A stretch of 34,255 nucleotides of DNA from a virus (lineage: Duplodnaviria; Heunggongvirae; Uroviricota; Caudoviricetes). The position numbers and the translations under genes are program-made. The notes under the pieces were generated by a model. The model saw nothing but the letters and a program-made list of their open reading frames with translations. It had not been told where the DNA came from and did not search any database. The DNA is taken from the IMG/VR virus record IMGVR_UViG_638341087_000014, positions 1-34,255 of that record. One strand, written 5' to 3'. This document shows, in pieces, positions 2,000-34,255 of the stretch (the stretch's first letter is position 1; each line of letters opens with the position of its first letter).

Positions 2000-2359
2000 A
2001 TGCGTATAGAGTTTGTTTTGCCTTACCCGCCAACGGTGAACACCTACTGGCGACGTCGTGGCAGTACATATTTTGTATCAAAAGCCGGTGAGCGTTATCG
2101 CCGTGATGTGGCGCTCATTGTTCGCCAGCAGCGACTGAGATTAAACCTGTCCGGAAGGCTGGCAATAAAAATTACTGCAGAGCCACCGGATAAGCGCCGC
2201 CGTGACCTGGACAATATTCTGAAAGCACCACTGGATGCGTTGACGCATGCGGGGTTGCTTATCGACGACGAGCAGTTTGATGAAATCAATATTGTGCGCG
2301 GTCAGGTCGTTCCTGGTGGTCGGTTGGGCGTGAAGATTTACAAAATTGAAAGTGAGTGA
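2000..2359 (+). CDS. rusA: Holliday junction resolvase RusA
   Basis: 119 aa; RusA hallmarks (PPTVNTYWRRRG, DKRRRDLDNILKAPLDALTHAGLLIDDEQ); AAAGAGG before the ATG; sits immediately upstream of the Q-like gene as in lambdoid nin regions. Confidence 0.9.
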   Translation: MRIEFVLPYPPTVNTYWRRRGSTYFVSKAGERYRRDVALIVRQQRLRLNLSGRLAIKITAEPPDKRRRDLDNILKAPLDALTHAGLLIDDEQFDEINIVRGQVVPGGRLGVKIYKIESE

Positions 2360-2367
2360 GCGTAAAT

Positions 2368-2922
2368 ATGATATACCCGGAAATTACAGGCAAAAGCGGT
2401 GAGCATTTACGCCTGAAAACGCTGGAAAGTGTCTGGCTCCAGGGGAAACTGCGTATGTGGGGGCGTTGGTCGTATATTGGCGGCGGTAAGACGGGAAATA
2501 TGTTCAACCAATTACTGACCTCTAAAAAGCTGACAAAAACGGCAATTAACGAGGCGCTCCGGAGGATGAAAAAAGCGGGTCTGGACAAACCTGAACTTGA
2601 GGCTTTTTTGCGGGATATGATCAACGGCAATCAAAAAAGCTGGCTGGCACATTGTACCGATTCAGAGGCGTTAATAATCGACAGGGTTATTGGTGAAGCC
2701 CTGGCCGGTTATCCCGGGCTGCTCAATGTCCTGAGTCAGCGTTATGTGGGGCGGGGGATGACTAAGCGCAAAATGGCTGAACTGCTGAATGATGCACACC
2801 CGGAATGGAGTTTAAGAACCTGTGAAAGACGCATTGAGCATTGGCTAAAGGTGGCAGAATTTATTTTGTACAAACCAATGGTTATGGCTTTTTGTATAGA
2901 GAAAAAAGTTATTGCTTTTTGA
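2368..2922 (+). CDS. Putative late-gene antiterminator (Q-like), assigned mainly by position
   Basis: About 184 aa, directly after rusA and directly before a strong intrinsic terminator, the lambdoid Q/pR'/tR' arrangement. I do not confidently recognise the family; GTG at 2356 is an alternative start. Confidence 0.5.
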   Translation: MIYPEITGKSGEHLRLKTLESVWLQGKLRMWGRWSYIGGGKTGNMFNQLLTSKKLTKTAINEALRRMKKAGLDKPELEAFLRDMINGNQKSWLAHCTDSEALIIDRVIGEALAGYPGLLNVLSQRYVGRGMTKRKMAELLNDAHPEWSLRTCERRIEHWLKVAEFILYKPMVMAFCIEKKVIAF

Positions 2923-2999
2923 CGTAAAAACTGCTTCAATGCCGGTACGCTTCGCAAAGCTGTACCGCGAGGCGAATAGCAGACATGGACATTTGAAAG

Positions 3000-3025
3000 A
3001 GCCCGCTTTTTGCGGGTTTTTTTTT
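3000..3025 (+). terminator. tR'-like intrinsic terminator downstream of the Q-like gene
   Basis: GCCCGC-TTTTT-GCGGG stem-loop followed by a 9-T run, about 80 bp after the Q-like stop. Confidence 0.6.
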
Positions 3026-3148
3026 ATGCCTGAAAAACGGTACAGGACGTTAAACGCGCTGATGGTTGCGAATACCGGTCTTTCAGCTTGCTGGCTTTTT
3101 CGACAAGAGCTATTGGTATGTCACGTTAACCAGAAAAGGAAAAAAGAC

Positions 3149-3346
3149 ATGCTAAAACAGCAGGATATGACCGAAACTGCCAGAGTGGTGTTTAATGAAT
3201 TAAGCGTCACCGAACCGGCGACCGTCGGGGAAATTGCGCAGAATACGTACCTTTCACGCGAACGCTGCCAGTTAATACTGACTCAGCTTGTTATGGCGGG
3301 TCTGGCAGATTATCAGTTCGGTTGTTACAGACGCCTTCCGCAGTGA
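3149..3346 (+). CDS. Small hypothetical protein (65 aa), possible helix-turn-helix
   Basis: ATG at 3149 preceded by AAAGGAAAAAAG; translation MLKQQDMTETARVVFNELSVTEPATVGEIAQNTYLSRERCQLILTQLVMAGLADYQFGCYRRLPQ; the stop lies inside a terminator hairpin. Confidence 0.4.
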   Translation: MLKQQDMTETARVVFNELSVTEPATVGEIAQNTYLSRERCQLILTQLVMAGLADYQFGCYRRLPQ

Positions 3347-3357
3347 AGGCTTTTTTA
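3333..3357 (+). terminator. Intrinsic terminator
   Basis: GCCTTC-CGCAGT-GAAGGC stem-loop followed by TTTTTTATTT. Confidence 0.5.
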
Positions 3358-3496
3358 TTTGTGGTAATGGGCGGCTGGTGGGTGTTAGCGGCACCTGCCA
3401 GCCATCTGCTCATGCGTTGGGGTCACAAGCAAACCTCAGGCCCATCTGCTTTGCGCAAAAGCGGTATGAGCCTATCAGAGAAGTGCTTATTGATCT

Positions 3497-4543
3497 ATGG
3501 CTAATACTGTAAAAATATCCAGTTGTGAGTTAATCAACGCTGATTGCCTGGAATTTATCCAGACTTTACCGGAAAACTCTGTCGATCTGATAGTCACAGA
3601 CCCGCCATACTTTAAAGTGAAGCCCGAGGGCTGGGATAACCAGTGGAAGGGCGACGATGATTACCTGAAATGGCTGGATCAGTGTCTGGCGCAATTCTGG
3701 CGGGTACTGAAACCTGCCGGAAGTCTCTACCTGTTCTGTGGTCATCGCCTGGCATCTGATACCGAAATCATGATGCGTGAGCGCTTTAATGTGCTGAACC
3801 ACATTATCTGGGCGAAGCCGTCCGGACGCTGGAACGGATGCAACAAGGAAAGCCTGCGGGCGTATTTCCCGGCAACAGAGCGCATTCTGTTTGCTGAACA
3901 TTATCAGGGGCCCTACCAGCCCAAAAATGACGGCTATGTGGCACAGGGGCGCAAGCTTAAACAGCACGTCATGGCCCCGCTGATTTCTTACTTTCGTGAT
4001 GCGCGTGAATCACTGGGAATAACGTCAAAACAGATAGCGGAAGCCACCGGAAAGAAAAATATGGCTTCGCACTGGTTTGGTGCCAGTCAGTGGCAGTTAC
4101 CGAACGAAGCTGATTACAGAAAACTGCAGGCATTGTTTGCGCGTGTTACAGCAGAAAAGCATCAGCGCGGGGAACTGGAAAAGCCACACCACCAGCTGGT
4201 CAGCGCATACAGTGAACTGAACCGTCAATACGCCAGCCTGCTGGAAGAGTACAAATCTTTGCGGCGTTATTTTTCCGTATCAGCTGCCGTTCCGTATACG
4301 GATGTCTGGACGCACAGGCCTGTGCAGTATTATCCGGGCAAACATCCCTGTGAAAAACCGGCGGATATGTTGCGGCAGATAATTGAGGCCAGCAGTCGCC
4401 CCGGTGATTTGGTTGCTGATTTTTTTATGGGGTCAGGTTCCACAATAAAGGCAGCATTGTCACTGGAGCGTCGGGCTATTGGTGTGGAACTGGATGAAGG
4501 GCGATTTAATCAGACTGTAACTGAAATAAAAAATATCTGTTAA
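3497..4543 (+). CDS. DNA methyltransferase, beta-class N6-adenine/N4-cytosine type (orphan, no restriction partner in window)
   Basis: 348 aa; N-terminal DPPY motif (LIVTDPPYF) and C-terminal FxGxG AdoMet motif (DFFMGSGST): motif IV before motif I. Confidence 0.85.
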   Translation: MANTVKISSCELINADCLEFIQTLPENSVDLIVTDPPYFKVKPEGWDNQWKGDDDYLKWLDQCLAQFWRVLKPAGSLYLFCGHRLASDTEIMMRERFNVLNHIIWAKPSGRWNGCNKESLRAYFPATERILFAEHYQGPYQPKNDGYVAQGRKLKQHVMAPLISYFRDARESLGITSKQIAEATGKKNMASHWFGASQWQLPNEADYRKLQALFARVTAEKHQRGELEKPHHQLVSAYSELNRQYASLLEEYKSLRRYFSVSAAVPYTDVWTHRPVQYYPGKHPCEKPADMLRQIIEASSRPGDLVADFFMGSGSTIKAALSLERRAIGVELDEGRFNQTVTEIKNIC

Positions 4544-4623
4544 TTGTGCATGGTGTTATTTCTGATAATTCCGGAATAATAAAAATATATATGTATATTT
4601 ACAATTGCTGACGAGCATTTTTA

Positions 4624-4651
4624 TTGAAAGCGTCCGGGTTATTCGTATTAT
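4624..4651 (+). promoter_or_regulatory. Candidate sigma70 promoter for the tRNA cluster
   Basis: TTGAAA (4624-4629), 16-bp spacer, TATTAT (4646-4651), about 30 bp upstream of the first tRNA. Confidence 0.3.
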
Positions 4652-4683
4652 TGTGCCGCGTCAGAGCAATGATGCAATGGACA

Positions 4684-4760
4684 GGCCCTTTAGCTCAGTT
4701 GGTCAGAGCGAGCGACTCATAATCGCCAGGTCGCTGGTTCAAGTCCAGCAAGGGCCACCA
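4684..4760 (+). tRNA. tRNA with CAU anticodon, ileX-like (tRNA-Ile2, lysidine type), often auto-annotated as tRNA-Met
   Basis: 77 nt cloverleaf folded by hand: acceptor GGCCCTT/AAGGGCC, T-arm GCTGG-TTCAAGT-CCAGC, anticodon loop CTCATAA, 3' CCA encoded. Confidence 0.8.
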
Positions 4761-4761
4761 G

Positions 4762-4838
4762 CCGCCACTAGCTCATCCGGATAGAGCATCAACCTTCTAA
4801 GTTGATGGTGCGAGGTTCGAGTCCTCGGTGGCGGGCCA
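4762..4838 (+). tRNA. tRNA-Arg (anticodon UCU)
   Basis: 77 nt: acceptor CCGCCAC/GTGGCGG, anticodon stem-loop TCAAC-CTTCTAA-GTTGA, T-arm CGAGG-TTCGAGT-CCTCG, CCA encoded. 5' end could shift by 1 nt. Confidence 0.8.
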
Positions 4839-4840
4839 GT

Positions 4841-4916
<76 letters not shown>

Positions 4917-4919
4917 TAT

Positions 4920-4994
<75 letters not shown>

Positions 4995-5246
4995 GAGCGA
5001 GATAGGTAGTTTTTTGGCACTGACACATTTTATGTAGGGCGTTTTTCCTGACTCCTTACCTCGCCCTGTACTGTAATGAGTGATATCGGTTGCAGTACCA
5101 GTGCTGTTTTTTACGCCACCGGAATGGTGCATTATTGGTAGAGATTTGCAATGTCTCTGGCAGGGGCCGGTGATGCATCATCCCGATGTTGTAAACATCG
5201 CTCAGATAACGTTGAAATCAATCAAACCCAGGAAATACATCTTTAA

Positions 5247-5270
5247 CCGCCGCACCAGGCGGTTTTTTTT
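5247..5270 (+). terminator. Intrinsic terminator downstream of the tRNA cluster
   Basis: CCGCC-GCACCA-GGCGG stem-loop followed by an 8-T run. Confidence 0.55.
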
Positions 5271-5646
5271 ATTCTTAATTCGAAGAAAAAGAAAACACGG
5301 ACATTGATAATGTCCGCGTGGCAATGCCATGTAAGTTAGCGATGAATATGGCGCAAAAAAAAGCGCGGCCGTCGGATTAACGCCGCGGGACAAAGTCCGT
5401 GAAGAATCATAAGCATCTGTCTCCTCCGGGAGACGAGTTGATATTACTAAGCTTTAAAAATGGTTTAAATCCTCAGATTAACCTTAATTTTCGGTAAGTC
5501 TTATTTCATTTCTTCGCGCCACGCCCGGCGCACATCAAAAAACCACAGAGCCTTTCAGGGGTGAGCTTACGGGATGGTCAGTGTGACTTTCTCTGTGGGC
5601 TGGTCACCCCCGGGCGCAGGCTCACCCACTAAAAGGAAAAGTCACG

Positions 5647-6072
5647 ATGTTTGGTATTTTCAAAAAGAAAACCCGCAAGGCCATTACCGAAGTGAAGAAG
5701 ATGGAGAACCGCGACGCAGTGGAGGCGACCGTCTGGGGCGCGTATTCCATTGCATATGCTGACGGCACCTGCGATGCGAAAGAAATCGCTGTGCTGGAGA
5801 AAACCATTGCAGCACTTCCTGCTTTTGCGCCGTTCTCGGGTGAGATTGCACAAATGAGTGCAAATATCCGCGCCCGTTATGAAGCGTCGCCGCGCTCTGC
5901 CAATGCTGAAGCCCTTCGCCAGCTGGCTGATGTTGCCGGTACTGATGATGCAGTTAATGTACTGTGCCTGTGTCTGGATATCGCAGACCAGGATGGCATT
6001 GGTCCGGATGAAGAAGCGCAGCTCAAGAAAATTGCTCAGGCGCTGCAGTTACCGCTGGAGCAGTACCTGTGA
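5647..6072 (+). CDS. TerB-like (tellurite-resistance TerB family) domain protein, 141 aa
   Basis: Pattern resembling TerB (two helical repeats with conserved AxxDG...EE/DEE, e.g. SIAYADGTCDAKEIAVLEK and LDIADQDGIGPDEEAQLKKIAQAL); AAAAGGAAAAG before ATG 5647. Family call from remembered pattern, not a search. Confidence 0.6.
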   Translation: MFGIFKKKTRKAITEVKKMENRDAVEATVWGAYSIAYADGTCDAKEIAVLEKTIAALPAFAPFSGEIAQMSANIRARYEASPRSANAEALRQLADVAGTDDAVNVLCLCLDIADQDGIGPDEEAQLKKIAQALQLPLEQYL

Positions 6073-19968: not shown

Positions 19969-20551
19969 CGATATCAGGAGCATACTGCCGGTCAGTGCCA
20001 GCCGGGCAGAGCGGGTGGTGGACTGTGTCGCCGGAGATATGCTGTCAGACATAGCGGTCTGCCTGATCCGCTATGTGAAAAATCCCGATTTATGTCCTGC
20101 TGAATTGCTGCCATGGCTGGCTTGGGAAATGGCGGTGGATACCTGGAATGAACACTGGACGGAGACGGAAAAAAGGTCTGCGATAAAACGTGCTGCTTAC
20201 ATCCACCGCCACAGAGGGACTAAAGCGGCGCTGATGGCATCGCTGGCTGACAGTCCCTTCCGGTCGCAGATTGTTGAGTGGTATGAGCAGACCCCACCCG
20301 GGGAGCCGTATACCTTTCGTCTGAACGTGGAGCAGAAGGATTTACCGGTGCTGATGAATGATCATCAGGATCTGAAGCATGCGGTGCTCCGTGCCAAAAA
20401 TCTGCGCAGCTGGTTCAGTATTCACGTTTACGGGAACAGCACAGGGCGTGGATTTGGTTACGGCTATGTGATGGCGACAGAAAAAATCAGAAGTACCGGT
20501 GTGACAACAAAGACAGTGCCCACAGGCGGGCAGAGTGAGGCAGGTGTATGA
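19961..20551 (+). CDS. Tail/baseplate protein I (P2 gpI-like)
   Basis: 196 aa in the position and with the overall pattern of P2 gpI; start overlaps the J-like stop. Confidence 0.8.
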   Translation: MNDDIRSILPVSASRAERVVDCVAGDMLSDIAVCLIRYVKNPDLCPAELLPWLAWEMAVDTWNEHWTETEKRSAIKRAAYIHRHRGTKAALMASLADSPFRSQIVEWYEQTPPGEPYTFRLNVEQKDLPVLMNDHQDLKHAVLRAKNLRSWFSIHVYGNSTGRGFGYGYVMATEKIRSTGVTTKTVPTGGQSEAGV

Positions 20552-21933
20552 ATGGACTGATTCTGACAACGTCCGGCGCTGCAGAAATTGAAGCAGCATA
20601 TCAGAACGGGCAAATCGTGACCGTCCGGCATGTTCTGCTTGGTGACGGGGGCGGGCGGGCATTGCCATCCACGCCGGATGAAATGGCAGCAATGACATCG
20701 TTGTACGGCGAATTCGGGCAGGAACCCTTTTCCGACGGTGCGGTGGAGGAGGGCTTCATCAGCGGGGATATTGTGATTGACTGTAAATCATACCCCGGTA
20801 AAACCCTTCGTGAACTGGGGATGATCAGCGACAGAGGTACGCTTATCGCGTACGGACGTTATCCGGACACCTTTTTACCAGACCAGACGGACTCCGTTAT
20901 CAAGGAAGTTATTCTGACGCTGGTTCTTGGACTGACGCACGCACAAAACGTGGTGCTGGAAGTTGATCCGGACAGGGCCATTATTACTCAGGAAATCGGA
21001 GACAGACGCTATCTGCAACGAAAAAAGAATCTTTCGGATGTGGAAGACAAGGATGAGGCTGTTGAAAGCCTCGGATTAAAACCTACGGTGGACAAGGCAA
21101 AAAATGCCGTTCAGCGTGATGGTGACACCATGACCGGGGAACTGAAAATCCGTGGTGTTAATGCGCTGAGGATTTTCAACGAAGCCTTTGGTCTGATTTT
21201 TCGTCGTTCGGAAGAGTGCCTGCACCTTATCCCTACCAGTGAAGGTCAGGGCGAGAATGGCGATATTGGTCCACTTCGACCGTTCACTATTAATCTGCGG
21301 ACGGGTGAAATATCCATGTCGCATAAAGTGTCTGTTGGCGGCGGTTCTCAGGTCAATGGTGCGCTGGGTATCGGCGTTCAGAACGCGCTGGGCGGAAACT
21401 CAATTGCTTTCGGGGATAACGATACAGGTATAAAACAAAACGGTGACGGCATTCTGGATGTTTATGCGAATGGGCAGCATGTATTTCGTTTCCAGAATGG
21501 TGTGGCGATAGCGTTAAAAAATATTCAGGCCGGAAATGCTAAAAAATTCACGTTATCCAGCGCCAACAACTCCACGAAAAACGCAACGTTTAATTTATGG
21601 GGCAATTCATCCCGCCCTGTAGTTGCAGAGCTTGGTGATGATTCTGGCTGGCATTTTTACAGTCAAAGGAATACGGATAACAGCATAACGTTCGCTGTAA
21701 ACGGGCAGATGGTTCCATCAAACTACGGAAACTTTGATGCCCGCTATCAGACCAAAACAGGCGGTGTGCAGGATGTGCGTCTGGGAAGCGCCATTGGTAT
21801 TGGACGCGGGGGAAATGCGCCATCAGGTCACCTTATCAGCGGTCTTGACGGTGGTGAAAGTATGGACTGGGCCAATGCCCGCCCGGTGCAGGTTCTGATT
21901 AATGGGGTCTGGCGGAATGTAGCGAGTTTGTAA
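20548..21933 (+). CDS. Tail fibre protein (P2 gpH position; N-terminal tail-collar-type domain)
   Basis: 461 aa after the I-like gene; N-terminal domain typical of myovirus tail fibres, Gly/Asn-rich distal part; followed by an assembly chaperone gene. Confidence 0.75.
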   Translation: MNGLILTTSGAAEIEAAYQNGQIVTVRHVLLGDGGGRALPSTPDEMAAMTSLYGEFGQEPFSDGAVEEGFISGDIVIDCKSYPGKTLRELGMISDRGTLIAYGRYPDTFLPDQTDSVIKEVILTLVLGLTHAQNVVLEVDPDRAIITQEIGDRRYLQRKKNLSDVEDKDEAVESLGLKPTVDKAKNAVQRDGDTMTGELKIRGVNALRIFNEAFGLIFRRSEECLHLIPTSEGQGENGDIGPLRPFTINLRTGEISMSHKVSVGGGSQVNGALGIGVQNALGGNSIAFGDNDTGIKQNGDGILDVYANGQHVFRFQNGVAIALKNIQAGNAKKFTLSSANNSTKNATFNLWGNSSRPVVAELGDDSGWHFYSQRNTDNSITFAVNGQMVPSNYGNFDARYQTKTGGVQDVRLGSAIGIGRGGNAPSGHLISGLDGGESMDWANARPVQVLINGVWRNVASL

Positions 21934-21935
21934 TT

Positions 21936-22481
21936 ATGATGCACTTAAAAAATATTACGGCACAAAACCCTAAAACAATTGAGCAATATCAGCTGGCGCG
22001 ACAGCATAAATTTTTATTGTGGCTGTTCTCCGATGATGGTCAGGAATGGCACGAAGCCCAGGAAAAATTTCAGCCAGACACTCTGAAAGTTATTTATGTT
22101 GAAACTGGCGAGGTGGTCTGGGTCGGAAAAGACATCACCTCAATCTGCCCGGAAAATAAAAGCGTGATTGAGCTACCGGATATTACCGCCAATCGTCGCA
22201 TTGAGGCGTCGGGTTACTGGTTCTACCGCAATGATGCATTTGTTTTTGACTACAAACTTAAAGCGGAAGACGAGCGTGATGCACTGTTAAAACAGGTCAG
22301 CATCATGACCAGCGAATGGGAAAAAGACCTGCTGCTGGGATTAATCAGTGACGAAGACAGGGAGAAGCTGAAAGCGTACCGCATTTACGCGAAATCGCTG
22401 CAGGCGATGGATTTCAGCGCTATTACGGATAAGACCACTTACAACAATATTAGCTGGCCTGAGCAGCCACAAAATACCTGA
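21936..22481 (+). CDS. Tail fibre assembly chaperone (Tfa, P2 gpG position)
   Basis: 181 aa immediately after the fibre gene, with the usual acidic, W/Y-containing profile. Confidence 0.7.
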   Translation: MMHLKNITAQNPKTIEQYQLARQHKFLLWLFSDDGQEWHEAQEKFQPDTLKVIYVETGEVVWVGKDITSICPENKSVIELPDITANRRIEASGYWFYRNDAFVFDYKLKAEDERDALLKQVSIMTSEWEKDLLLGLISDEDREKLKAYRIYAKSLQAMDFSAITDKTTYNNISWPEQPQNT

Positions 22482-27149: not shown

Positions 27150-27342
27150 CGGCGATATGCTGGATGATATCTGTCAGAGACACTATGGCAGCGCCGGACT
27201 TAACCAGTCACTGGCGGCGGTACTGGAAGCCAATCCCGGACTGGCTGATATTGGTCCGATCTATCCGGCGGGAGTGGAAATCGTGTTGCCGGACTGGGTG
27301 TATGAACCGGAGGAAAAGGAGACGTTTCAGCTATGGGACTGA
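27124..27342 (+). CDS. Tail protein X (P2 gpX-like)
   Basis: 72 aa small ORF between the U- and D-like genes, overlapping both. Confidence 0.75.
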   Translation: MAKNWRTTDGDMLDDICQRHYGSAGLNQSLAAVLEANPGLADIGPIYPAGVEIVLPDWVYEPEEKETFQLWD

Positions 27343-28421
27343 ATGAGTATCAGCCGGATTTCAGCCTGACAGCAGAGGGGGAGGATATCACGAAGGCCAT
27401 AAAGCGGGGGCTGGCTGAACTGCGTTATACCGATAATGGTGCTGCCACAAAGCGCTCCGATGAACTGATGATAACCCTGTTCAGTGAGACGATGGCGCTG
27501 CCACCAAAAGGTGCGGTGTTAACGCTGGGACTGGGATTCAACGGAAACCTGGTCAATAAAGGCAGCTTTACAGTCTGTCAGGTGGCAAGCGGCGGTCCTC
27601 CCCGCCGGATCACCATTTATGCCACCGCAGCCCCCATGAATGCGTCAAAACATGGCGCAGACGTGACCGCACTGAAAACCCGGGCTTTCAGCGATATCAC
27701 ACTGGGCGACCTGGTGAACACCATCGCCACTGAAAATAATCTGGTGGCGCGCGTCTCATCGGTGCTTGCTGATATTCATATCCCGTGGGTGATGCAGTCA
27801 TCAGAATCTGATGCTGCCCTCTTGTCCCGCATTGCAGGTATGTACGGCGCCACCAGTAAACCGACCAATGGCTACTGGTTATTTCTGGAATACGGGGCAT
27901 CACAGAGTACGGGGGGCAGAAATGCGCCTGAGATAACCATTACGCCGGGTATGGTATCAGACTGGGGTTATCGTGAAGGTGAGCGACAGGGCGCTGCGGG
28001 TGGTGCGAAGGGGGATAAAAAGAGCGGGAAAGTTGGGGTCCGGTATTTTGATGCCCGTGACGGACGCACACGTGAAGTTAAAGTTGACGTGGAGTCAACA
28101 GATAAGCGGCATCCGTTTACCCAGCCTGACCAGGGCACCGCAAAACACTGTGCAGAGTCGAAGGTTAAACGTGTGCAGAAAGCCGGACGCCAGATGACGA
28201 TAACGTTGCCCTGCAGGCCGGAACTGCTGAAAGCAGGGGCGGAGATGCGTTTTGTCACGCAGGGATTTGGTGTGCGTGAGGACCATCACTGGCAGGCTGA
28301 GTCTGTGGAGTTTTCACTGGTACCGGGACAGGGATTTACGCTGAATCTGTCACTGACCACGGATATTTCTGCAAAGGGGAAAGCCAGTGGCAAGAAAAAA
28401 GGCGTCAATTATTTTGGTTAA
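27333..28421 (+). CDS. Tail protein D (P2 gpD / late control D-like)
   Basis: 362 aa terminal gene of the P2-like tail operon. Confidence 0.85.
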   Translation: MGLNEYQPDFSLTAEGEDITKAIKRGLAELRYTDNGAATKRSDELMITLFSETMALPPKGAVLTLGLGFNGNLVNKGSFTVCQVASGGPPRRITIYATAAPMNASKHGADVTALKTRAFSDITLGDLVNTIATENNLVARVSSVLADIHIPWVMQSSESDAALLSRIAGMYGATSKPTNGYWLFLEYGASQSTGGRNAPEITITPGMVSDWGYREGERQGAAGGAKGDKKSGKVGVRYFDARDGRTREVKVDVESTDKRHPFTQPDQGTAKHCAESKVKRVQKAGRQMTITLPCRPELLKAGAEMRFVTQGFGVREDHHWQAESVEFSLVPGQGFTLNLSLTTDISAKGKASGKKKGVNYFG

Positions 28422-28445: not shown

Positions 28446-31400
28446 ATGTCTGTATTAATTTCGGGTGTGCTGACGGATGGCACGGGACTCCCCATGTCCG
28501 GATACCATATTATTCTGAAAGCCCGACAGAATACATCCGCAGTGGTCATGAGAACGGTGGCAACAGTGGTGACGGGGCCGGCCGGAGAATATGCATTTGA
28601 GGCTCAGACCGGAAGATATGACGTTTATCTTCGGTCGTGTATTGAAAGAGAATATTGTGTTGGTGACATTTCGGTTTACGACGATTCAAAGCCCGGCACA
28701 CTGAATGATTTTCTGACCGCTCTCGATGAAGGCGACCTCAAACCCGACGTGGTGAAACGCTTTGAGGAAATGGTGGCACAGGCGCAGCAGAGCGCCGAAG
28801 CCGCAGCGGAAAGCGAGCAGCAGGCCGGGCAACATGTCGCTGATGCGCAACAAATCAAGAGCGACTGCGAGACGCTGGCGGATAACGTACAGCAGAACGC
28901 AGAGGCCGTTACCGAAGATAAAAAGCAGGTGGCACAGCTGGCATCATCTGCCACACAGGATGCCGCCCGGGCAGAACAGGCGGTCAAAGATGCCGATAAG
29001 ATAGTCCAGAAAGCGGTCGATAAACTTGCTGATGCCGCAACGCTGACCGGTGAGGCAAAAGCCAGCGCCGAAGCGGCAGCAAAAAGCGAGCAGAGCGCGA
29101 AACAGCACAGGGACGAGGCGCAACGGATAGTTGATGACCTGAAGGGAACCAACGCCAGCACGACGCAAAAAGGCCTGGTGCAACTCTGTAGTGATACAGA
29201 CAACGACAGCGAAGAACTGGCCGCCACGCCAAAAGCCGTCAAAACCGTCATGGACGAGACGAAAACAAAAGCGCCACTGGACAGCCCGGCATTCATCGGC
29301 ACGCCCACCACACCAACCCCGCCGGACGATGCGACCGGGCTGGAGATGGCGAACGCGGCATTTGTTCGCAAACTGCTTGCTGCGCTGGTTGACTCGTCAC
29401 CGGAAGCCCTGGACACACTGAACGAGCTGGCAGCTGCGCTGGGCAATGACCCGGAGTTTGCGACAACAATCATGAACGCGCTGGCGGGTAAACAACCACT
29501 CAGCGACGTGTTAACCGCAATCAGTAATCTGGAAGAACGGGCAGATAATCTTCTGTGCTTTAATCAGGACGGGAATGCTTCGCTGTCTCCACTGTCAGAA
29601 AAAGCCCGGTCACTGCTGGCACAGGCCACAGTGGAAGCCATGCGCACGGAGCTTGAGCTGAAAAGCGCGGCGGTAAAGGACATTCAGACAGACCTTTACG
29701 ACAGCACGGAAGGCCGTGTTGCGCTACCAGGTGCATTTGGTTACGGAATGACGGACGCCGGAGCAAGTTCAATTATTGCCCGCGATATGGCGACCATAGC
29801 CAAAAGTGCGCATAACCTGCACCCGGGACGGTATTACACCTTTTCCACACAAACGGAAGAGACGACCGGAATAACAGAAATTATCTGGCTGGATAATGGC
29901 TGGGACGACAAAACCAGCCAGACAGCAACAAAGCTGGTTCTGTTTTTTGGAAAAGACGGACGGATCCTTATGACCGTTCGTGGCGATAATATCTCCGCTC
30001 CGGTCACCTGGACGAATCTGACGCCACAACTGGGCAATGCAGCACAGAAGGATGCGCAGGAGAATATTTACGACCGCACCGAAGGCCGACTGGCGATTCC
30101 TGGCATGTTCGGGTTCGGGAAAATATTTGGCCACGAAGACAGAGTAGAGTTCAGAACGCGTTCAGCATTACTGGCGTGGGCAAAAACAGCGAAGCCGGGG
30201 AGGTATCATTGTTTTGGTGACATTAAAGACCTCATTCCAGGTTTGCCACAGATCTACGGGATTATTGAAGTAATCTGGCCCTATGACTCTACAGGAAGCG
30301 CCGTTGAAAATGTTAGCAAAACACTGATTTACAATGCTGGTCGCAACCTTTTTTTAAGTACGTATGTACCTACCGGAGATGGATGGCTTACTGACTGGGA
30401 GAACCTGAAGGTTGATGAGGCCTCACTCAGAGCGCTGATTGAAACCCGCGCACCGCTGAAAAGCCCGGCACTGACCGGAACACCGTCCACGCCAACACCG
30501 CCGGATGATGCAGCAGGTAATGAAATAGCCAATGCGGCGTTTGTCCGCAAACTGCTCGCTGCGCTGGTTGGCTCATCACCGGAAGCTCTCGACACGCTGA
30601 ACGAACTGGCAGCGGCGCTGGGCAATGACCCGAACTTTGCGACAACGGTAACTAAAGCACTGGCAGGTAAACAGCCGCTTAATGACGTGTTAACGGCTGT
30701 CAGCCAGATAACACCGGAAGAAAACACGCTGCCTTATTTCAGTTCAGAGGGCCGGATTTTACTGGCGCAGCTGTCAGAAAAAGCCCGCGCATTACTGGCG
30801 CTGGACACGCCTGAGGCCATGCGCACGGAGCTTGAACTGAAAGCGGCTGCGACGATGGAACCCCAGAGCGATATCCGCGACCGCACACCGGGCAGGCTGG
30901 CACTGTCCGGCATGCATGGATTTGGTCAGGCATTTACCAGCACTGAAGCCCTGGCGTTTGAGGGACTGTCTGATTTCGTTGAATGGCTGAAGAAAGTCAC
31001 GCCGGGGCGGTATGCGGTCAGTATTACTGATTCATCACAACTGCTTACCGGTACCACGCAATTTAACGGCATTATTGACGTGATGTGGTCCCCGTACGCC
31101 AACAGTGAATCTGACACAGTCCGCAAATTTAAAACCCTGATGTGTTACAACCAGTATTATCAGGGTGAACACTGTATTCACTATATGCAGTACCGGTACA
31201 ACGACAGCGATAACAGCTGGAACATGTCATCGCGGGTAGTTGTCTACGACGGAGATTCACTGGCGTACCTGTTGTCCAGGATGGCGGGCTCAGGCTCATA
31301 TTTCAAATACCCGGCAGTGGGTGTTCCGGTGCTGGCTGTTTATCGCGGAACAACTTCCGGGGATAAAGAAATCAAAATTGGCCTGGGTGATGTGGTGCAG

Positions 31401-31586
31401 GGGTCACAACTGGGCGGAGTTAATCTTTCGTGCACAATATCTTCTGCCGGGCCTGGCTCTTACGGTTCAACACCAAGTGCAGGAGCAACAGGGTACACTT
31501 TTCCGGGGCGTTATATGGCGTTATCCGGGGTCAGGGACTCTTACGGAACAAGCGGTCGTATCTGCCTGTTTGTGCGCATCGAGTAA
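28446..31586 (+). CDS. Large tail fibre protein (lambda Stf-type N-terminus, Ala-rich coiled coil, duplicated collar-repeat modules)
   Basis: 1046 aa; prophage tail-fibre-type N-terminus; two copies of the fibre repeat (SPAFIGTPTTPTPPDD...ANAAFVRKLLAAL...LNELAAALGNDP); three TEGR/PGRY-containing distal domains. Confidence 0.85.
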   Translation: MSVLISGVLTDGTGLPMSGYHIILKARQNTSAVVMRTVATVVTGPAGEYAFEAQTGRYDVYLRSCIEREYCVGDISVYDDSKPGTLNDFLTALDEGDLKPDVVKRFEEMVAQAQQSAEAAAESEQQAGQHVADAQQIKSDCETLADNVQQNAEAVTEDKKQVAQLASSATQDAARAEQAVKDADKIVQKAVDKLADAATLTGEAKASAEAAAKSEQSAKQHRDEAQRIVDDLKGTNASTTQKGLVQLCSDTDNDSEELAATPKAVKTVMDETKTKAPLDSPAFIGTPTTPTPPDDATGLEMANAAFVRKLLAALVDSSPEALDTLNELAAALGNDPEFATTIMNALAGKQPLSDVLTAISNLEERADNLLCFNQDGNASLSPLSEKARSLLAQATVEAMRTELELKSAAVKDIQTDLYDSTEGRVALPGAFGYGMTDAGASSIIARDMATIAKSAHNLHPGRYYTFSTQTEETTGITEIIWLDNGWDDKTSQTATKLVLFFGKDGRILMTVRGDNISAPVTWTNLTPQLGNAAQKDAQENIYDRTEGRLAIPGMFGFGKIFGHEDRVEFRTRSALLAWAKTAKPGRYHCFGDIKDLIPGLPQIYGIIEVIWPYDSTGSAVENVSKTLIYNAGRNLFLSTYVPTGDGWLTDWENLKVDEASLRALIETRAPLKSPALTGTPSTPTPPDDAAGNEIANAAFVRKLLAALVGSSPEALDTLNELAAALGNDPNFATTVTKALAGKQPLNDVLTAVSQITPEENTLPYFSSEGRILLAQLSEKARALLALDTPEAMRTELELKAAATMEPQSDIRDRTPGRLALSGMHGFGQAFTSTEALAFEGLSDFVEWLKKVTPGRYAVSITDSSQLLTGTTQFNGIIDVMWSPYANSESDTVRKFKTLMCYNQYYQGEHCIHYMQYRYNDSDNSWNMSSRVVVYDGDSLAYLLSRMAGSGSYFKYPAVGVPVLAVYRGTTSGDKEIKIGLGDVVQGSQLGGVNLSCTISSAGPGSYGSTPSAGATGYTFPGRYMALSGVRDSYGTSGRICLFVRIE

Positions 31587-31599
31587 CGGGGAATAAAAC

Positions 31600-32178
31600 A
31601 TGAAAATCAGAGCGGTAAAAGGCATCAGAAACGCGCATTATCTTGAAAATGGCGCGGTTGACTGCGAGGTGTTATTTGAAGGTGAAACGGAATTCGTCCC
31701 GTATACCGCCATGCAGGATGATACCGCCCCGACAGGCCAGCGCATCTGGGGAGGGTTACAGAGCGGCAAATGGGGTGAAATCGCCCCGTTCAACGTCACG
31801 CCGGAACTTATCGCGGCAGCAAAGGAGGCCAAAAAACGGGAAATCGAGCTCTGGCGCACAGAACAGGAAGCGCAGCCGTTCACGTTTGAATGGAACGGTC
31901 GCACCTGGAATGCTGGCCCAGACTCACTGGCCCGTCTCTATCCGGTGGTAATGGCTGCAAAATCTGATACGGCACGAACCGCCCTTGCGTGGGGCGACGC
32001 TGATAATCAACAGGTGAAACTGTCGATGCAGGAACTTGAAGAACTGGCGGCAGCACTGGCGCAGGCGCAGGTCAATCGCAACGACGAGATTTATCGTCGA
32101 CAGCGGGAGATGAAAGAAGAACTGAATAACTTGGATGATTTGCGCTCAATTAGAGCGATTGCAATTAACAGTAATTAG
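31600..32178 (+). CDS. Tail fibre assembly chaperone (Tfa)
   Basis: 192 aa directly after the large fibre gene; its C-terminal coding sequence is duplicated as a remnant at 33581-33658. Confidence 0.8.
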   Translation: MKIRAVKGIRNAHYLENGAVDCEVLFEGETEFVPYTAMQDDTAPTGQRIWGGLQSGKWGEIAPFNVTPELIAAAKEAKKREIELWRTEQEAQPFTFEWNGRTWNAGPDSLARLYPVVMAAKSDTARTALAWGDADNQQVKLSMQELEELAAALAQAQVNRNDEIYRRQREMKEELNNLDDLRSIRAIAINSN

Positions 32179-32216: not shown

Positions 32217-32240
32217 TAGTGAGGGGGGCGCCCCTCACTA
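32217..32240 (+). terminator. Strong hairpin between convergent genes (possible bidirectional terminator)
   Basis: Perfect 10-bp stem TAGTGAGGGG / CCCCTCACTA around a GC core, followed on + by TTTATT; lies 5 nt beyond the stop of the minus-strand gene. Confidence 0.5.
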
Positions 32241-32244
32241 TTTA

Positions 32245-32790
32245 TTACCACCAGCTATCAGCTTTACTCTCTCGTGCTTTTCCCTCACTTTGCAACAATT
32301 CTTTGGTACCAGTTGAAATATTACGCCGAGCATCCGCTTCTGATTGAATAACGTCAGTTTGTGCAGCCCGCTCCTTGAGTTCTTGGTCCAGAAAATCGTT
32401 TGCTCTATTTACCCTGGCCCTTTTAGCTTCGAGTTCGAGTTTTCGGTTTTCTAGCTCAAGTTGGCGTAATTGATCTTCATAATCTTGATCGCGTTTTTTA
32501 TCTGCCGCCATCTCCGCTTCGAGCTTAGCTTTACGCTCAAACTCAGCCGCTCGTCGTTGTTTTTCTTTTGCTGCTGCCATAGCCGCTGCTTTCTCTTTGC
32601 GAATCCTTTCCGCATTGGCACGTTGGCGCTCTTGTTCTTTACGTGCATCTTCAATACGTTTTTCTTCGGCTTTACCTTCATTTTCGGCTTGCGCAATAGC
32701 CGCTAATTGTTCCTGTAAAGAAGACGCGTTAACGTAAAAAGTGCTTAGGCACGGCAAAGCTAATAGTATATATAAAGCAAGACGTGTCAT
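32245..32790 (-). CDS. Secreted, highly charged coiled-coil protein (TolA-domain-II-like K/E/A/R-rich helix)
   Basis: 181 aa; N-terminal signal peptide (MTRLALYILLALPCLSTFYVNA), then a low-complexity charged helix; AT-rich codon usage unlike the phage structural genes. Confidence 0.6.
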   Translation of the reverse strand: MTRLALYILLALPCLSTFYVNASSLQEQLAAIAQAENEGKAEEKRIEDARKEQERQRANAERIRKEKAAAMAAAKEKQRRAAEFERKAKLEAEMAADKKRDQDYEDQLRQLELENRKLELEAKRARVNRANDFLDQELKERAAQTDVIQSEADARRNISTGTKELLQSEGKARESKADSWW

Positions 32791-32802
32791 CTGAAATGGC
32801 CA

Positions 32803-33315
32803 TTATTTATTATCAGGGCATGTTGCATTTGGTTGAATACGTGTTTCGTTTTCTTTAGTTGAAATCATGGCTGCTAATCCAGGCGCAAATTGGCAAGTTC
32901 TACCAACTTGAGTCGATGTATAAACTTTTGTACCTTCTTTGTATGTTAGAGAAACGCCTTCAACAATTGTTTTATCTTTGACTAATGAACCAGCGGCTGC
33001 ACCAAGTGCGGTTCCACCTACAGCCCCTGCGGTGGTTGCCAGTTTCGAACCACTTTTGGTGTTATGTCCAATTACTCCTCCAGCAACGGCACCAACTACA
33101 GCACCGAATGTTTGTGCTGCTTCTTTATTCTCTTTGTTGTCCACAGCAATTTTTGCAGGAAGAACCGAAATGATAGTTATCATTTTGGTTTCTTGTTTGG
33201 AATTAACCTGAGTGGTGTCATAAACATCTGCAGCAAGATGTTCTGCAGTAGACTGACACCCACTTAATACAAAGGCAGCTAATAAAGAAATGGTTGCTTT
33301 ATTTAATTTCAACAT
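32803..33315 (-). CDS. Outer-membrane lipoprotein, SlyB/PCP-like (glycine-zipper)
   Basis: 170 aa; lipobox LSGC; Gly-zipper GAVVGAVAGGVIGH...GAVGGTALGAAAG and overall SlyB-like pattern; AT-rich; 12 bp upstream of the coiled-coil gene on the same strand. Confidence 0.7.
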   Translation of the reverse strand: MLKLNKATISLLAAFVLSGCQSTAEHLAADVYDTTQVNSKQETKMITIISVLPAKIAVDNKENKEAAQTFGAVVGAVAGGVIGHNTKSGSKLATTAGAVGGTALGAAAGSLVKDKTIVEGVSLTYKEGTKVYTSTQVGRTCQFAPGLAAMISTKENETRIQPNATCPDNK

Positions 33316-33580
33316 TTTACTTGCTCTCCTAGTTTCTGAGAAACTGCAAATATATTTACCTGAGCTTTTGTGTCAATATTTTTTTGGTTGTTTTGTTGTC
33401 TTTAATCAAAAAAGTATCCTGCTCATATAGTTCTGTTTAGTGTTTTTATGTTTTTTAATGAATTTTATAAATAGCTGAATTTATTGATATCAATATATAA
33501 ACTTATCGTGCATACATTGCCAAAAATACAGTTTCAGAAGGGGGGCTGGTTGTTGTTGGGGGCAATGTTATCAGTGGGAA

Positions 33581-33658
33581 ATGCAGGATGAACTGAATAA
33601 TCTGGATGATTTACGCTCAATCAGAGAGATGACGATTAGCGGCAATCACGCTCGATAA
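33581..33658 (+). pseudogene. Remnant 3' end of a tail fibre assembly (tfa) gene
   Basis: Encodes MQDELNNLDDLRSIREMTISGNHAR, matching the C-terminus of the Tfa at 31600-32178; 33590-33626 is a near-identical direct repeat of 32119-32155. Confidence 0.5.
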
Positions 33659-33662
33659 AATT

Positions 33663-33688
33663 AACCCCGGTGATCATCCGGGGTTTTG
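33663..33688 (+). terminator. Hairpin terminator between the tfa remnant and the convergent antirepressor-like gene
   Basis: AACCCCGG-TGATCAT-CCGGGGTT stem-loop followed by TTTTG. Confidence 0.55.
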
Positions 33689-33694
33689 CATTCA

Positions 33695-34255
33695 TTAAAA
33701 CCGCATCAACCGTTCCACCAGTTGTTCTTTATGGGCAACGATCCAGCCGCGTTGTTCCAGATAAAATTTGAACCGTTCCAGAGTGCATACCATCGCATCG
33801 GCGGGGACTTTTTCCGTGAACTCGACCTGACCGTGTTTATCGAAGTGGATCAGTAATGCGAATCCATCATTTTTGGTGGCGGAGTTTTGTGCTGCTGGTG
33901 GTTGTTTTTGGCTGAAATAACAGCCTTCGAGTTTTTCGAACACTTCCCACGCCTGATCGGTTTCGAGCATTTTTGCGTGGCGGGCTGCGCCACGTTCTGT
34001 CCAGAGGATGAGGTGCTTTGTACGCGGTGCAACTAAGTTACTTTGAGTAACCTTGTTCTTAAATTCCCGCAACTCAGCTCCTTCCAATTTGAAGTAGTGT
34101 TTCCCACAAACAAAACGCTCGGCATTGCGTGTATAGTTCACTTTGATGTTATTAGTTTCGGTGCCATAAAGTTGTGCCAAAAGCTCGGTAGTAATGACAG
34201 GGATTTGGTTATGGGGGAGCGGGGAAAGAGTTTCAACTGAGATTTGAATAGCCAC
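33695..34255 (-). CDS. Antirepressor-like protein (ORF6N/ORF6C-type), possibly truncated at the window edge
   Basis: 186 aa with an N-terminal region resembling ORF6N-type phage antirepressors; the ORF begins with GTG at the last three bases of the window, so the true start may lie beyond it. Confidence 0.5.
   Translation of the reverse strand: MAIQISVETLSPLPHNQIPVITTELLAQLYGTETNNIKVNYTRNAERFVCGKHYFKLEGAELREFKNKVTQSNLVAPRTKHLILWTERGAARHAKMLETDQAWEVFEKLEGCYFSQKQPPAAQNSATKNDGFALLIHFDKHGQVEFTEKVPADAMVCTLERFKFYLEQRGWIVAHKEQLVERLMRF

Follow-up and report, generated by a model that had tools for sequence, protein, structure and literature searches.

A second, predicted side fibre of the lambda Stf family at the end of the P2-type tail operon of a lambdoid Escherichia coli prophage

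Results and discussion

The late tail operon and its side fibre gene

The stretch of DNA analysed here (34,255 nucleotides; IMG/VR record IMGVR_UViG_638341087_000014; hereafter the window) is a lambdoid prophage of E. coli 52F4 that is integrated at ompW; its head is of the lambda type and its contractile tail of the P2 type. The tail module comprises sheath, tube and the baseplate genes V-W-J-I, genes of the lambda gpV/gpM type are absent from the annotation, and all structural genes are intact according to RefSeq. The last P2-type tail gene (27333-28421, plus strand) encodes a gpD-like tail protein (phrog_52, E=1e-94), which carries the RefSeq name 'late control protein'. Its stop codon is followed after 24 nt by the start of a reading frame on the same strand (28446-31586), which is preceded by an AGGAA ribosome-binding site and stays open for 1046 codons up to its stop. 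A gene encoding a DUF4376 protein of 192 amino acids (31600-32178, plus strand) begins 14 nt further downstream. Between the latter gene and a converging minus-strand DUF5384 gene, a terminator scan found a GC-rich hairpin with a T-rich tail (AGTGAGGGGGGCGCCCCTCACT then ATTTATT; 32218-32246), which is the likely end of the late operon. The scan detected no hairpin in the gpD-stf or stf-DUF4376 junctions, and its remaining matches all lie inside coding sequence. The stf and DUF4376 genes, as a pair, close the late tail operon on its 3' side, beside the attachment site.

The product of 28446-31586 (hereafter Stf) is 99.9% identical to WP_097331623.1 from E. coli 52F4. Judged by its predicted N-terminal anchor, PF03406 repeat and hinge/rod module, it is an intact fibre of the lambda Stf family. 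A sequence-only reading of the same DNA had proposed a second, very large Stf-type fibre after the last P2-like tail gene, which is confirmed by the PF08400 and PF03406 matches and by the position of gpD directly upstream. PF12571, a feature of the P2 gpH/Mu S family, is absent from Stf, and the gene is placed after gpD rather than beside gpI/J.

Module layout of Stf

Stf starts with the virion-anchoring Ig-like StfN domain (N; aa 1-100, 28446-28745), for which the PF08400 match extends over residues 1-134 and the full model length (E=3.3e-55). It is followed by an Ala-rich coiled-coil shaft (aa 101-237, 28746-29156) with 24% Ala, no Pro and a hydrophobic period of 3.5 residues. The short internal repeats ascribed to this shaft are present, albeit weak: 18 of 46 residues are identical at an offset of 91, and this 91-residue repeat is matched in the DNA by a 30-nt repeat (28791-28820 and 29064-29093, 273 nt apart). 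Next comes a single PF03406 'phage tail fibre repeat' (aa 238-272, 29157-29261), which is detected in one stretch only (E=1.3e-15; profile match at residues 238-277). The distal part, all on the plus strand, consists of a first hinge and helical-rod module (A1; aa 273-410, 29262-29675), the knob domains D1 (aa 411-533, 29676-30044) and D2 (aa 534-662, 30045-30431), a second hinge and helical-rod module (A2; aa 663-805, 30432-30860), the knob domain D3 (aa 806-930, 30861-31235) and a Gly-rich (17%) terminal tip domain (aa 931-1046, 31236-31583), the presumed receptor-binding end. Within D2, a core (aa 561-650, nt 30126-30395) represents a variable cassette between conserved flanks.

In agreement with the three related TEGR/PGRY-type domains noted earlier, D1, D2 and D3 are paralogues with the signature EGR...PGRY...IIxVxW and pairwise E-values of 1e-6 to 1e-17; D2 and D3 are 42% identical (E=1e-17). 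The tip was considered as a fourth D domain on account of a PGRY at residue 1020 and was rejected, as the likeness is confined to this short motif and hhalign gives a probability of 1%. AlphaFold2 modelled the D1 monomer as one helix plus strands with a pLDDT of about 70, and D3 reached about 85; for the D and tip domains, no relative with a solved fold was found. Receptor binding is presumed for these domains from their position and variability only. At the fold level, Stf is likened to the knob-and-foot fibres of R2 pyocin, phage Mu S and staphylococcal phage receptor-binding proteins.

The first fibre pair and the DUF4376 partner

The H-like fibre and chaperone reported inside the baseplate module (20548-22481) are real. 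The former (20548-21933, plus strand, 461 aa) is a P2 gpH-type baseplate fibre with an N-terminal PF12571 domain (E=6.5e-14) and membership in PHROG tail fibre families, and the latter (21936-22481, plus strand, 181 aa) is its Tfa-type assembly chaperone (PF02413 Caudo_TAP, E=5.4e-23; 93% identical to phiP27 L55). The accession of the H fibre is WP_001013717.1 and that of the DUF4376 protein encoded after stf is WP_000701875.1. The first fibre has no similarity to Stf (E>=0.49), and its distal part (residues about 188-461) is common to the Stf-adjacent fibres of phiP27, A36, W and Rac-SA53.

Stf had been credited with a Tfa of its own. A partner gene does lie downstream, but its product is a PF14301/DUF4376 protein (E=5e-16; 59.5 bits vs a cutoff of 25) and not a PF02413 Tfa. 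It has no match to lambda Tfa and none in a PDB search. In every intact allele examined, and likewise in the lytic phage Av-05, the DUF4376 gene lies directly downstream of the D-tip fibre gene; the Av-05 counterpart is 40% identical (E=5e-54). The same arrangement is found in Alteromonas phage V22, in which a DUF4376-domain protein (gp27) is encoded directly after the fibre gene (gp26) and reportedly serves as a chaperone that the fibre requires (PMC7289586, PMC10579305). However, the fibres of V22 and of the window are unrelated and the similarity of the partners is at the domain level only; the E. coli protein presumably acts, by analogy, on the Stf tip as a chaperone or cap.

Distribution and selection

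The gpD-stf junction is present in 74 of 5426 complete E. coli genomes (about 1.4%) at >=80% coverage and 85-99.9% identity, and among the matches sampled a single gpD copy lacked an adjacent stf. The dN/dS ratios amount to 0.06-0.37 across all nine Stf modules (N anchor: 0.11-0.14), to 0.18-0.26 in the DUF4376 gene and to 0.31 in the H fibre, indicating that all Stf modules, the DUF4376 gene and, where measured, the H fibre are under purifying selection. None of the 11 intact alleles analysed contains a frameshift or premature stop; one further allele (Br_190) is a truncated pseudogene.

Both fibre pairs occur together in phiP27, A36, E. coli W, Rac-SA53, CFIAFB20180511 and 401651, and ETEC1734 carries the Stf pair with a short unassigned protein in the position of the first fibre. 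In total, Stf and the DUF4376 protein are encoded beside an H-type fibre and its Tfa in at least three unrelated contractile-tail backgrounds. Since phiP27 (L54-L57), Rac-SA53 (tail1-tail4) and the E. coli W prophage all encode an H-type fibre, a Tfa, a Stf-type fibre and a DUF4376 protein, the two predicted fibre sets represent a conserved arrangement that has already been sequenced though it is undescribed. Our literature searches on Stf fibres of contractile-tailed lambdoid phages, on PF08400 and on the phiP27 fibres yielded nothing specific. In the databases, the fibre genes of phiP27, Rac-SA53 and E. coli W are annotated only as 'tail fiber'. The distal Stf modules and the DUF4376 gene are also found in the classical lambda J-Lom-Stf context. 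The closest isolated phages with the same head/tail combination, Chris1 and yong2, possess one fibre only, making Stf an add-on that might in principle be dispensable.

The window differs from the phiP27 group in several respects. The four genes of phiP27, Rac-SA53 and E. coli W form an uninterrupted block, and these phages have tails that are Mu-like or belong to a third type, whereas in the window the P2 gene order splits the set, placing the genes from sheath to gpD between the two pairs. The N domain of the window is of another type (74-78% identity), and its D2 core is unique (35-40%). Rac-SA53 (1061 aa) and E. coli W (1046 aa) share the complete N-CC-collar-A-D-D-A-D-tip architecture with the window, while the phiP27 fibre is N-CC-D-tip only (490 aa). 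The DUF4376 proteins are 76-85% identical.

A probable second host-recognition fibre and its docking site

Both fibre pairs are intact, belong to the late operon and co-occur in at least three unrelated contractile-tail backgrounds, and the stf and DUF4376 genes and, where measured, the H fibre gene are under purifying selection, which on sequence grounds makes the presence of two fibre sets per virion plausible. We consider it probable that Stf is a functional second host-recognition fibre of this prophage. As we infer its assembly on the particle, Stf would trimerise with the help of the DUF4376 chaperone at the tip, and its N domains would form a ring anchoring the fibres to the virion. The coiled coil, the two hinge/rod units A1 and A2 and the three knobs D1-D3 would give rise to a long, twice-jointed fibre, of which D3-tip, and possibly also the variable D2 knob, may bind a surface structure reversibly and thereby speed up adsorption. 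The commitment signal for contraction would come from the unrelated baseplate H fibres.

Lambda Stf (as encoded by Ur-lambda) is one of the closest known counterparts. It has in common with the window Stf the PF08400 anchor (47% identity), an Ala-rich coiled-coil shaft, the PF03406 repeat (74%), an assembly gene downstream and the position at the end of the tail operon. Its single hinge and distal rod module is 52% identical to A1 and to A2, and this counterpart forms a hinge and distal coiled coil in Ur-lambda (PMC12617516). However, lambda Stf has one A module, a T4 gp37-like tip and a PF02413 Tfa, whereas in the window fibre the A module occurs twice and is joined by three D knobs and an unrelated tip, and the partner is a DUF4376 protein; residues 411-1046 of this fibre have no similarity to the lambda stf region. 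The tails differ as well. The non-contractile tail of lambda carries the N-domain ring on its tube (gpV/gpM), and lambda Stf accelerates adsorption (PMC12617516). The window specifies a P2-type contractile tail without a gpV/gpM homologue, and contractile tails have a sheath over the tube surface that serves lambda StfN (PMC12617516).

It is therefore conceivable, and we tentatively entertain the idea, that Stf is anchored at the neck instead of near the baseplate, forming a collar fibre or whisker on head-completion and tail-terminator proteins that would serve long-range first contact or environment sensing. Residues 1-197 match gp40, the collar spike of the contractile-tailed Vibrio phage XM1 (7kjk_A3, E=1.2e-7), which likewise has an Ig-like N domain followed by a coiled coil, and of which six trimers bind the neck via the Ig-like domain (PMC10457771). 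Exposed neck proteins are also encoded in the window (Hc1, Neck1 and a 183-aa protein without assignment). On the other hand, identity to gp40 is low, its distal part is different, and neck attachment is shown for XM1 but conjectured for Stf. Moreover, the match to the lambda Stf N-terminal structure 9e7m is far stronger (E=1.5e-17). Finally, the N domains of phiP27 and Rac-SA53 are 96% identical, yet BLAST comparison of the virion proteins of these two phages revealed nothing in common except the fibre cassette, and thus neither a shared neck protein nor any other candidate docking partner. Location is the sole difference between a neck-anchored Stf and the preferred reading.

We regard it as improbable that the Stf-DUF4376 cassette is a passenger that derives from siphovirus-type lambdoid phages, is not built into the P2-type virion, whether expressed or not, and is kept as recombination stock for co-resident lambdoid prophages. 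The location of the pair at the extreme end of the late operon, beside the attachment site where cargo accumulates, would suit such an origin, as would the sharing of distal modules with the J-Lom-Stf context, the single-fibre relatives Chris1 and yong2, and the viability of the lambda laboratory strain, which lost stf (PMC12617516). However, the low dN/dS of the anchor domain itself speaks against this reading. Three P2-type-tail prophages at two integration sites have N domains with 98-99% identity even though they have exchanged the remainder of the gene; the N domain differs by 22-26% from that of other tail types, with 74-78% identity to the phiP27/Rac type, and is 40% identical to that of a Mu-proper type. 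The retention of the gpD junction in 74 genomes down to 85% identity, with one sampled gpD lacking Stf, and the 11 intact alleles, set against the single pseudogene Br_190, likewise argue against a passenger.

The internal repeat and module exchange

The two diverged direct repeats about 1180 bp apart that had been noted in the gene are borne out. The segments 29271-29524 and 30450-30703 are 79% identical, and 29583-29707 and 30762-30886 are 70% identical, the spacing being exactly 1179 bp in both cases. The similarity holds on protein alignment, where residues 273-481 and 666-881 are 54.6% identical (E=5e-61), far above chance. The proposed content of the repeat, a collar repeat plus a helix, applies in part: the helical rod is repeated, but the Pfam fibre repeat is single and the duplicated unit begins just after it. 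The internal repeat is an A module present twice, resulting from the module shuffling that is typical of fibre genes.

As to the suggestion that the repeats are substrates for recombination, natural alleles do differ in length and tip and one carries a chimeric A module, but the repeats are not a hot spot: because the paralogues A1 and A2 share at most 20 identical bases in a row and the orthologues are 94-99% conserved in most alleles, the architecture is old and stable. A recent, unstable in-situ tandem duplication that often collapses or expands to yield mixed long and short fibres is very unlikely, for although the repeats are direct and in frame, and a crossover product would be an intact A-D-tip fibre resembling the 757-residue 08-00022 allele, A1 and A2 are only 70-72% identical in protein with a dS of about 1.0, orthologous A1 (97-99%) and A2 (94-97%; four of seven alleles) are preserved across prophages that differ in tails and integration sites, and the D-D-A block of the lytic phage Av-05 suggests assembly from pre-existing modules.

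The alleles were compared on the basis of complete E. coli genomes, as the homologue search gave only short or partial proteins of less than 450 aa. They form a series comprising D-tip, A-D-tip, A-D-D-tip and A-D-D-A-D-tip. The 08-00022 allele lacks D1-D2 and has a single A module with an A1-like 5' end and an A2-like 3' end; this chimera is, by its sequence, the expected crossover product. In addition, A2 of Rac-SA53 carries an A1-like patch. In this series of relatives the A module is absent, single or double and the D domains number one to three, which shows that over evolutionary time fibres change in length and specificity by exchange at the conserved A and D-leader sequences.

Exchange is also apparent inside the fibre. 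Among two-unit alleles D1 is 85-100% conserved, and the D2 core of the window is 35-40% identical to every other allele, with the flanking D1 and A2 mostly at 95-100%. Matches in the 5426 E. coli genomes stop at about nt 30128, and the D2-core type of the window is confined to 52F4 and, in part, a second strain. Seven alleles combine three types of D2 core with four types of D3-tip in six different ways; as judged from these combinations, D2 core and D3-tip reassort independently, which is new here.

Two further candidates were dismissed. An invertible segment or shufflon of the Mu G or P1 C type came into question through a match to the P1 cix region, but the P1 similarity of stf merely reflects the common A module, no invertase gene is present among the annotated genes of the window or the scanned neighbours, and inverted repeats are at chance level only (21-29 nt at 76-81%). 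In this regard, the window differs from its relative, Citrobacter phage Chris1, which possesses an invertase. P0041, a 410-aa 'tail fiber protein' that looked like a stand-alone distal unit, comes from a lambdoid siphovirus prophage whose stf is split and corresponds to the downstream half.

The independent variation of D2 raises the speculative idea of a bivalent fibre, in which internal D2 and terminal D3-tip would act as separate, independently exchanged receptor-binding modules with the second hinge/rod between them, and in which the lambda-type N ring would occupy a non-lambda site, probably the neck, on a partner that is conserved structurally rather than in sequence across at least three unrelated tail types. 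We consider this combination rather unlikely. Two receptor-recognition regions per side-fibre assembly are known from the branched lateral fibres LtfA/LtfB of the T5-like phage DT57C (PMC4728585, PMC10713586); there, however, the regions reside on two polypeptides, whereas in Stf a single chain carries the D2 core and D3-tip one after the other, and a binding role of D2 is putative.

Taken together, Stf is in most respects an ordinary mosaic prophage fibre, present but undescribed in sequenced phages. Two aspects go beyond routine annotation: the internal D2 core, which assorts independently of the tip, shows variation like that of a receptor-binding cassette, and several contractile-tailed virion types have conserved the lambda-type anchor domain although its known docking surface is sheath-covered. 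Fibre genes set the host range of phages, and this locus provides a clear natural series in which a side fibre has been lengthened, shortened and re-tipped via conserved linker modules. Design rules for engineering Stf chimeras and retargeting particles can usefully be drawn from such an allele series.

Prophage setting and virion type

At 99.9% identity, the window corresponds to a prophage integrated at ompW in E. coli 52F4 (calf, Switzerland). It combines lambdoid late control and lysis genes (RusA, Q, DNA methylase, four tRNAs, holin, M15 endolysin) with lambda-type head genes (Nu1, A, W, B, C, D, E, FI) and a contractile tail in P2 order (V, W, J, I, H fibre (PF12571), Tfa (PF02413), sheath, tube, E, tape measure, U, X, D). 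The nearest isolated phages, Hafnia phage yong2 and Citrobacter phage Chris1, whose sheaths are 62–63% identical to that of the window, share the lambda-type head and P2-type tail but possess one fibre only, so that Stf and its partner represent an addition to this virion type. In Chris1 (L007, 20548–23243), the single fibre is accompanied by a DNA invertase and alternative tips, where the window instead has a second fibre; the invertase switch is another route to host-range breadth within the same virion type.

Two further regions were noted. On the 3' side of the Q antiterminator homologue (2356–5650), a type II-like DNA methyltransferase gene (3497–4543) and four clustered tRNA genes (4684–4994; Met-CAT, Arg-TCT, Thr-TGT, Gly-TCC) are followed by ~650 bp without any ORF of at least 90 aa, at a position occupied by toxin genes in Stx phages. 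At the prophage end, a low-GC block on the minus strand (32245–34255; 0.42–0.43), headed by a near-consensus promoter (33376–33349), encodes a DUF5384 protein, a glycine-zipper lipoprotein with weak TraT similarity and an ORF6N-domain protein matching PADLOC candidate PDC-S05 (E = 1.7e-9); these are possibly cargo or exclusion genes.

Stf consists of a lambda-like proximal half and two distal units

The stf gene (28446–31586, plus strand) is an uninterrupted ORF of 1046 codons that starts 24 nt 3' of the gpD stop, with an AGGAA ribosome-binding site upstream. The DUF4376 gene begins 14 nt past the stop of stf, and a GC-rich hairpin with T tail (32218–32246) ends the stf–DUF4376 unit; the terminator scan listed no hairpin at either the gpD–stf or the stf–DUF4376 junction. 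A Pfam domain search revealed PF08400 (prophage tail fibre N-terminal, E = 3.3e-55) and a single PF03406 fibre repeat. The internal repeats proposed in the sequence-only reading are real: two direct repeat blocks detected by repeat finding (29271–29524 vs 30450–30703, 79% identity; 29583–29707 vs 30762–30886, 70%) are offset by exactly 1179 bp, and the similarity persists on proper alignment of the protein, residues 273–481 matching 666–881 with 54.6% identity (E = 5e-61). The collar repeat had been counted into this duplication, but PF03406 occurs once and is not duplicated. The three TEGR/PGRY distal domains were recovered as paralogues of ~125 residues each, D1 (411–533), D2 (534–662) and D3 (806–930); they align pairwise at E = 1e-6 to 1e-17 and carry the common signature DxYDxTEGRxAxPGxFGxG ... 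PGRY ... GIIxVxW. Comparison ruled out the C-terminal 116 residues as a fourth copy. Residues 101–237 are Ala-rich (24%) and Pro-free with a hydrophobic period of 3.5 residues, which fits the predicted coiled coil, and contain a weak internal repeat of 91 residues. The sequence-only observation thus holds at the coordinates it gave.

The module order is N – coiled coil – repeat – hinge/rod A1 – D1 – D2 – hinge/rod A2 – D3 – tip. Lambda Stf is 47% identical in the N anchor domain and 74% in the PF03406 repeat, and its single A module, which in the Ur-lambda structure forms the hinge and distal coiled-coil rod (PMC12617516), is 52% identical to A1 and A2 alike; beyond residue 410 resemblance to lambda ends. 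Stf is thus of lambda type in its proximal half, to which two distal units are joined. In laboratory lambda (L019, 1822–2294), the frameshift splitting stf into orf-401 and orf-314 lies exactly at the PF03406-repeat/A-module junction (MDET/KAPLDSP), the boundary at which the repeated unit of the window starts and alleles swap.

AF2 monomer models of D1, D2, D3 and the tip contain confident globular parts (pLDDT about 70–85); each D is predicted to pack one helix against four or five strands, with its conserved leader motif disordered. Foldseek found no PDB match for the D and tip models, and no Pfam family covers the D region. Of 1.84 billion proteins searched with a profile built from the three D copies, only 88 cluster representatives matched, three copies being present in 4 and two in about 17, and the domain occurs in PF08400 (Stf-type) as well as PF12571 (H-type) fibres. 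In NCBI, numerous partial sequences of Stf tips (among P0001–P0060 and P0166–P0180) bear the name 'shikimate transporter, partial', evidently a propagated misannotation of phage fibre fragments.

The partner of Stf is a DUF4376 protein

The second fibre had been credited with its own Tfa. A second Stf-type fibre with a downstream partner is indeed present, but the 192-residue product of 31600–32178 (plus strand) belongs to PF14301/DUF4376 (59.5 bits, cutoff 25) and not to the PF02413 Tfa family in the Pfam search. In Alteromonas phage V22, the DUF4376 protein gp27 has been reported to be a transient cap and a fibre chaperone of a new type (PMC7289586, PMC10579305); the partner of Stf is a putative DUF4376 chaperone. 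Homologues lie directly 3' of D-tip fibres in all intact alleles examined, among them those of Av-05, a lytic phage of the Vequintavirinae (40% identity, E = 5e-54), and of one classical lambdoid J-Lom-Stf locus.

Fibre alleles form a modular series

Nine modules were mapped on 11 intact alleles, the window's own included. The comparison across related prophages envisaged earlier yielded a series of 490 to 1061 aa: N-CC-D-tip in phiP27 (Mu-like tail, 490 aa; CC, coiled coil), N-CC-collar-A-D-tip in 08-00022 (same P2-type prophage at ompW, 757 aa), N-CC-collar-A-D-D-tip in STEC309 (P2-type tail, at uspF, 790 aa) and N-CC-collar-A-D-D-A-D-tip in the window, A36, CFIAFB20180511, ETEC1734, E. coli W, Rac-SA53 and 401651 (P2-type, Mu-like and third type, 1033–1061 aa). 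In two 'DH5alpha' assemblies of 4.83 Mb (NZ_CP026085.1, NZ_CM135829.1), the Stf locus is of the E. coli W type and its match statistics cannot be told apart from those of W records; these assemblies may be mislabelled W derivatives.

The repeats had been regarded as recombination substrates. In support, 08-00022 has a single A module that resembles A1 over the 5' three quarters (identity dropping from 96% to about 80%) and A2 at the 3' end (up to 96%). The change-over falls near identical runs of 17–20 bp (29592–29656), as expected after an A1 x A2 crossover with loss of D1–D2; likewise, A2 of Rac-SA53 has an A1-like central patch (83–93% vs 44–47%). However, the arrangement is ancient and modular, with identities of at most 20 bp, rather than a hot spot. 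The A1/A2 paralogues share no exact DNA match above 20 bp and differ by a dS of about 1.0, A1 orthologues are 97–99% identical across prophages differing in tail and integration site, A2 orthologues are 94–97% identical in four of seven alleles, and the D-D-A block recurs in Av-05, all of which argues that the two-unit form is old and stable. It was probably put together from pre-existing modules and not by recent local duplication.

Compared with related alleles, the window shows abrupt changes in synonymous divergence, from 0 to >1 between neighbouring modules, a signature of mosaic exchange. Variation among the seven two-unit alleles is found in two regions, the D3-tip end (four types) and the D2 core (residues 561–650; three types). 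The D2 core of the window is 35–40% identical to every other type, the flanking D1 and A2 being mostly 95–100% identical. Among 5426 complete E. coli genomes, matches to D1–D2 end at about nt 30128, and the core type of the window is confined to 52F4 and, in part, one further strain. Since six different combinations were found, D2-core and D3-tip types reassort independently. This D2-core variability, absent from the sequence-only reading, adds to what was otherwise an essentially correct account with three corrections, and together with the independent assortment it forms the basis for reading Stf as a possibly bivalent fibre (D2 core plus D3-tip).

Stf appears in use and may dock at the neck

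Across nine Stf modules dN/dS is 0.06–0.37, as compared to 0.18–0.26 for the DUF4376 gene and 0.31 for the H fibre. The gpD–Stf junction (at least 80% coverage) occurs in 74 of 5426 genomes at 85–99.9% identity, and the alleles examined are free of frameshifts except for a truncated pseudogene. The latter, in Br_190_kylling (L017, 2269–4206; at ompW), lies next to prophage remnants; degraded prophages do show decay of the stf locus. The N domain is 98–99% identical among three prophages with P2-type tails at two integration sites and 74–78% identical to the phiP27/Rac type, whereas the adjoining coiled coil is freely exchanged, which fits an anchor adapted to its virion. A third anchor type, only 40% identical, is found in ETEC1734 (L014, 2301–6959), a Mu-proper prophage with com/mom downstream in which a two-unit Stf plus DUF4376 replaces the invertible G segment.

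In lambda, a dodecameric collar made of the N-terminal 91 residues of Stf sits on the tail where gpV and gpM meet (PMC12617516). There the tube is the docking surface, whereas in the P2-type tail of the window it is covered by the sheath. The N-terminal 197 residues of the window's Stf are also similar to gp40, the collar spike of XM1, a phage with a contractile tail (E = 1.2e-7); gp40 binds the neck as six trimers (PMC10457771). Taken together, these observations make the neck, for which the window encodes Hc1, Neck1 and an unassigned 183-residue protein, a reasonable docking candidate. However, the N domains of phiP27 (L009) and Rac-SA53 (L010) are 96% identical, yet BLAST detected no further virion protein in common, so that the anchor partner is either conserved in structure only or part of the fibre cassette.

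The H fibre and Stf of the window show no sequence similarity and thus should recognise different structures. The kind is already known, mosaic evolution of phage fibres being textbook knowledge. PMC12617516 mentions lambda-Stf-type fibres on myophages. The same four-gene set (H-type fibre distal part, Tfa, Stf, DUF4376) exists in phiP27 and Rac-SA53. This host-recognition cassette is contiguous in these two, A36 and E. coli W (L002, 7747–11355; L001, 5293–10992), whereas in the window P2 gene order splits it, the sheath-to-gpD genes lying between the pairs (20548–22481 and 28446–32178). Two features merit experiment: the internal knob, which assorts independently, and the place where Stf docks on contractile tails.
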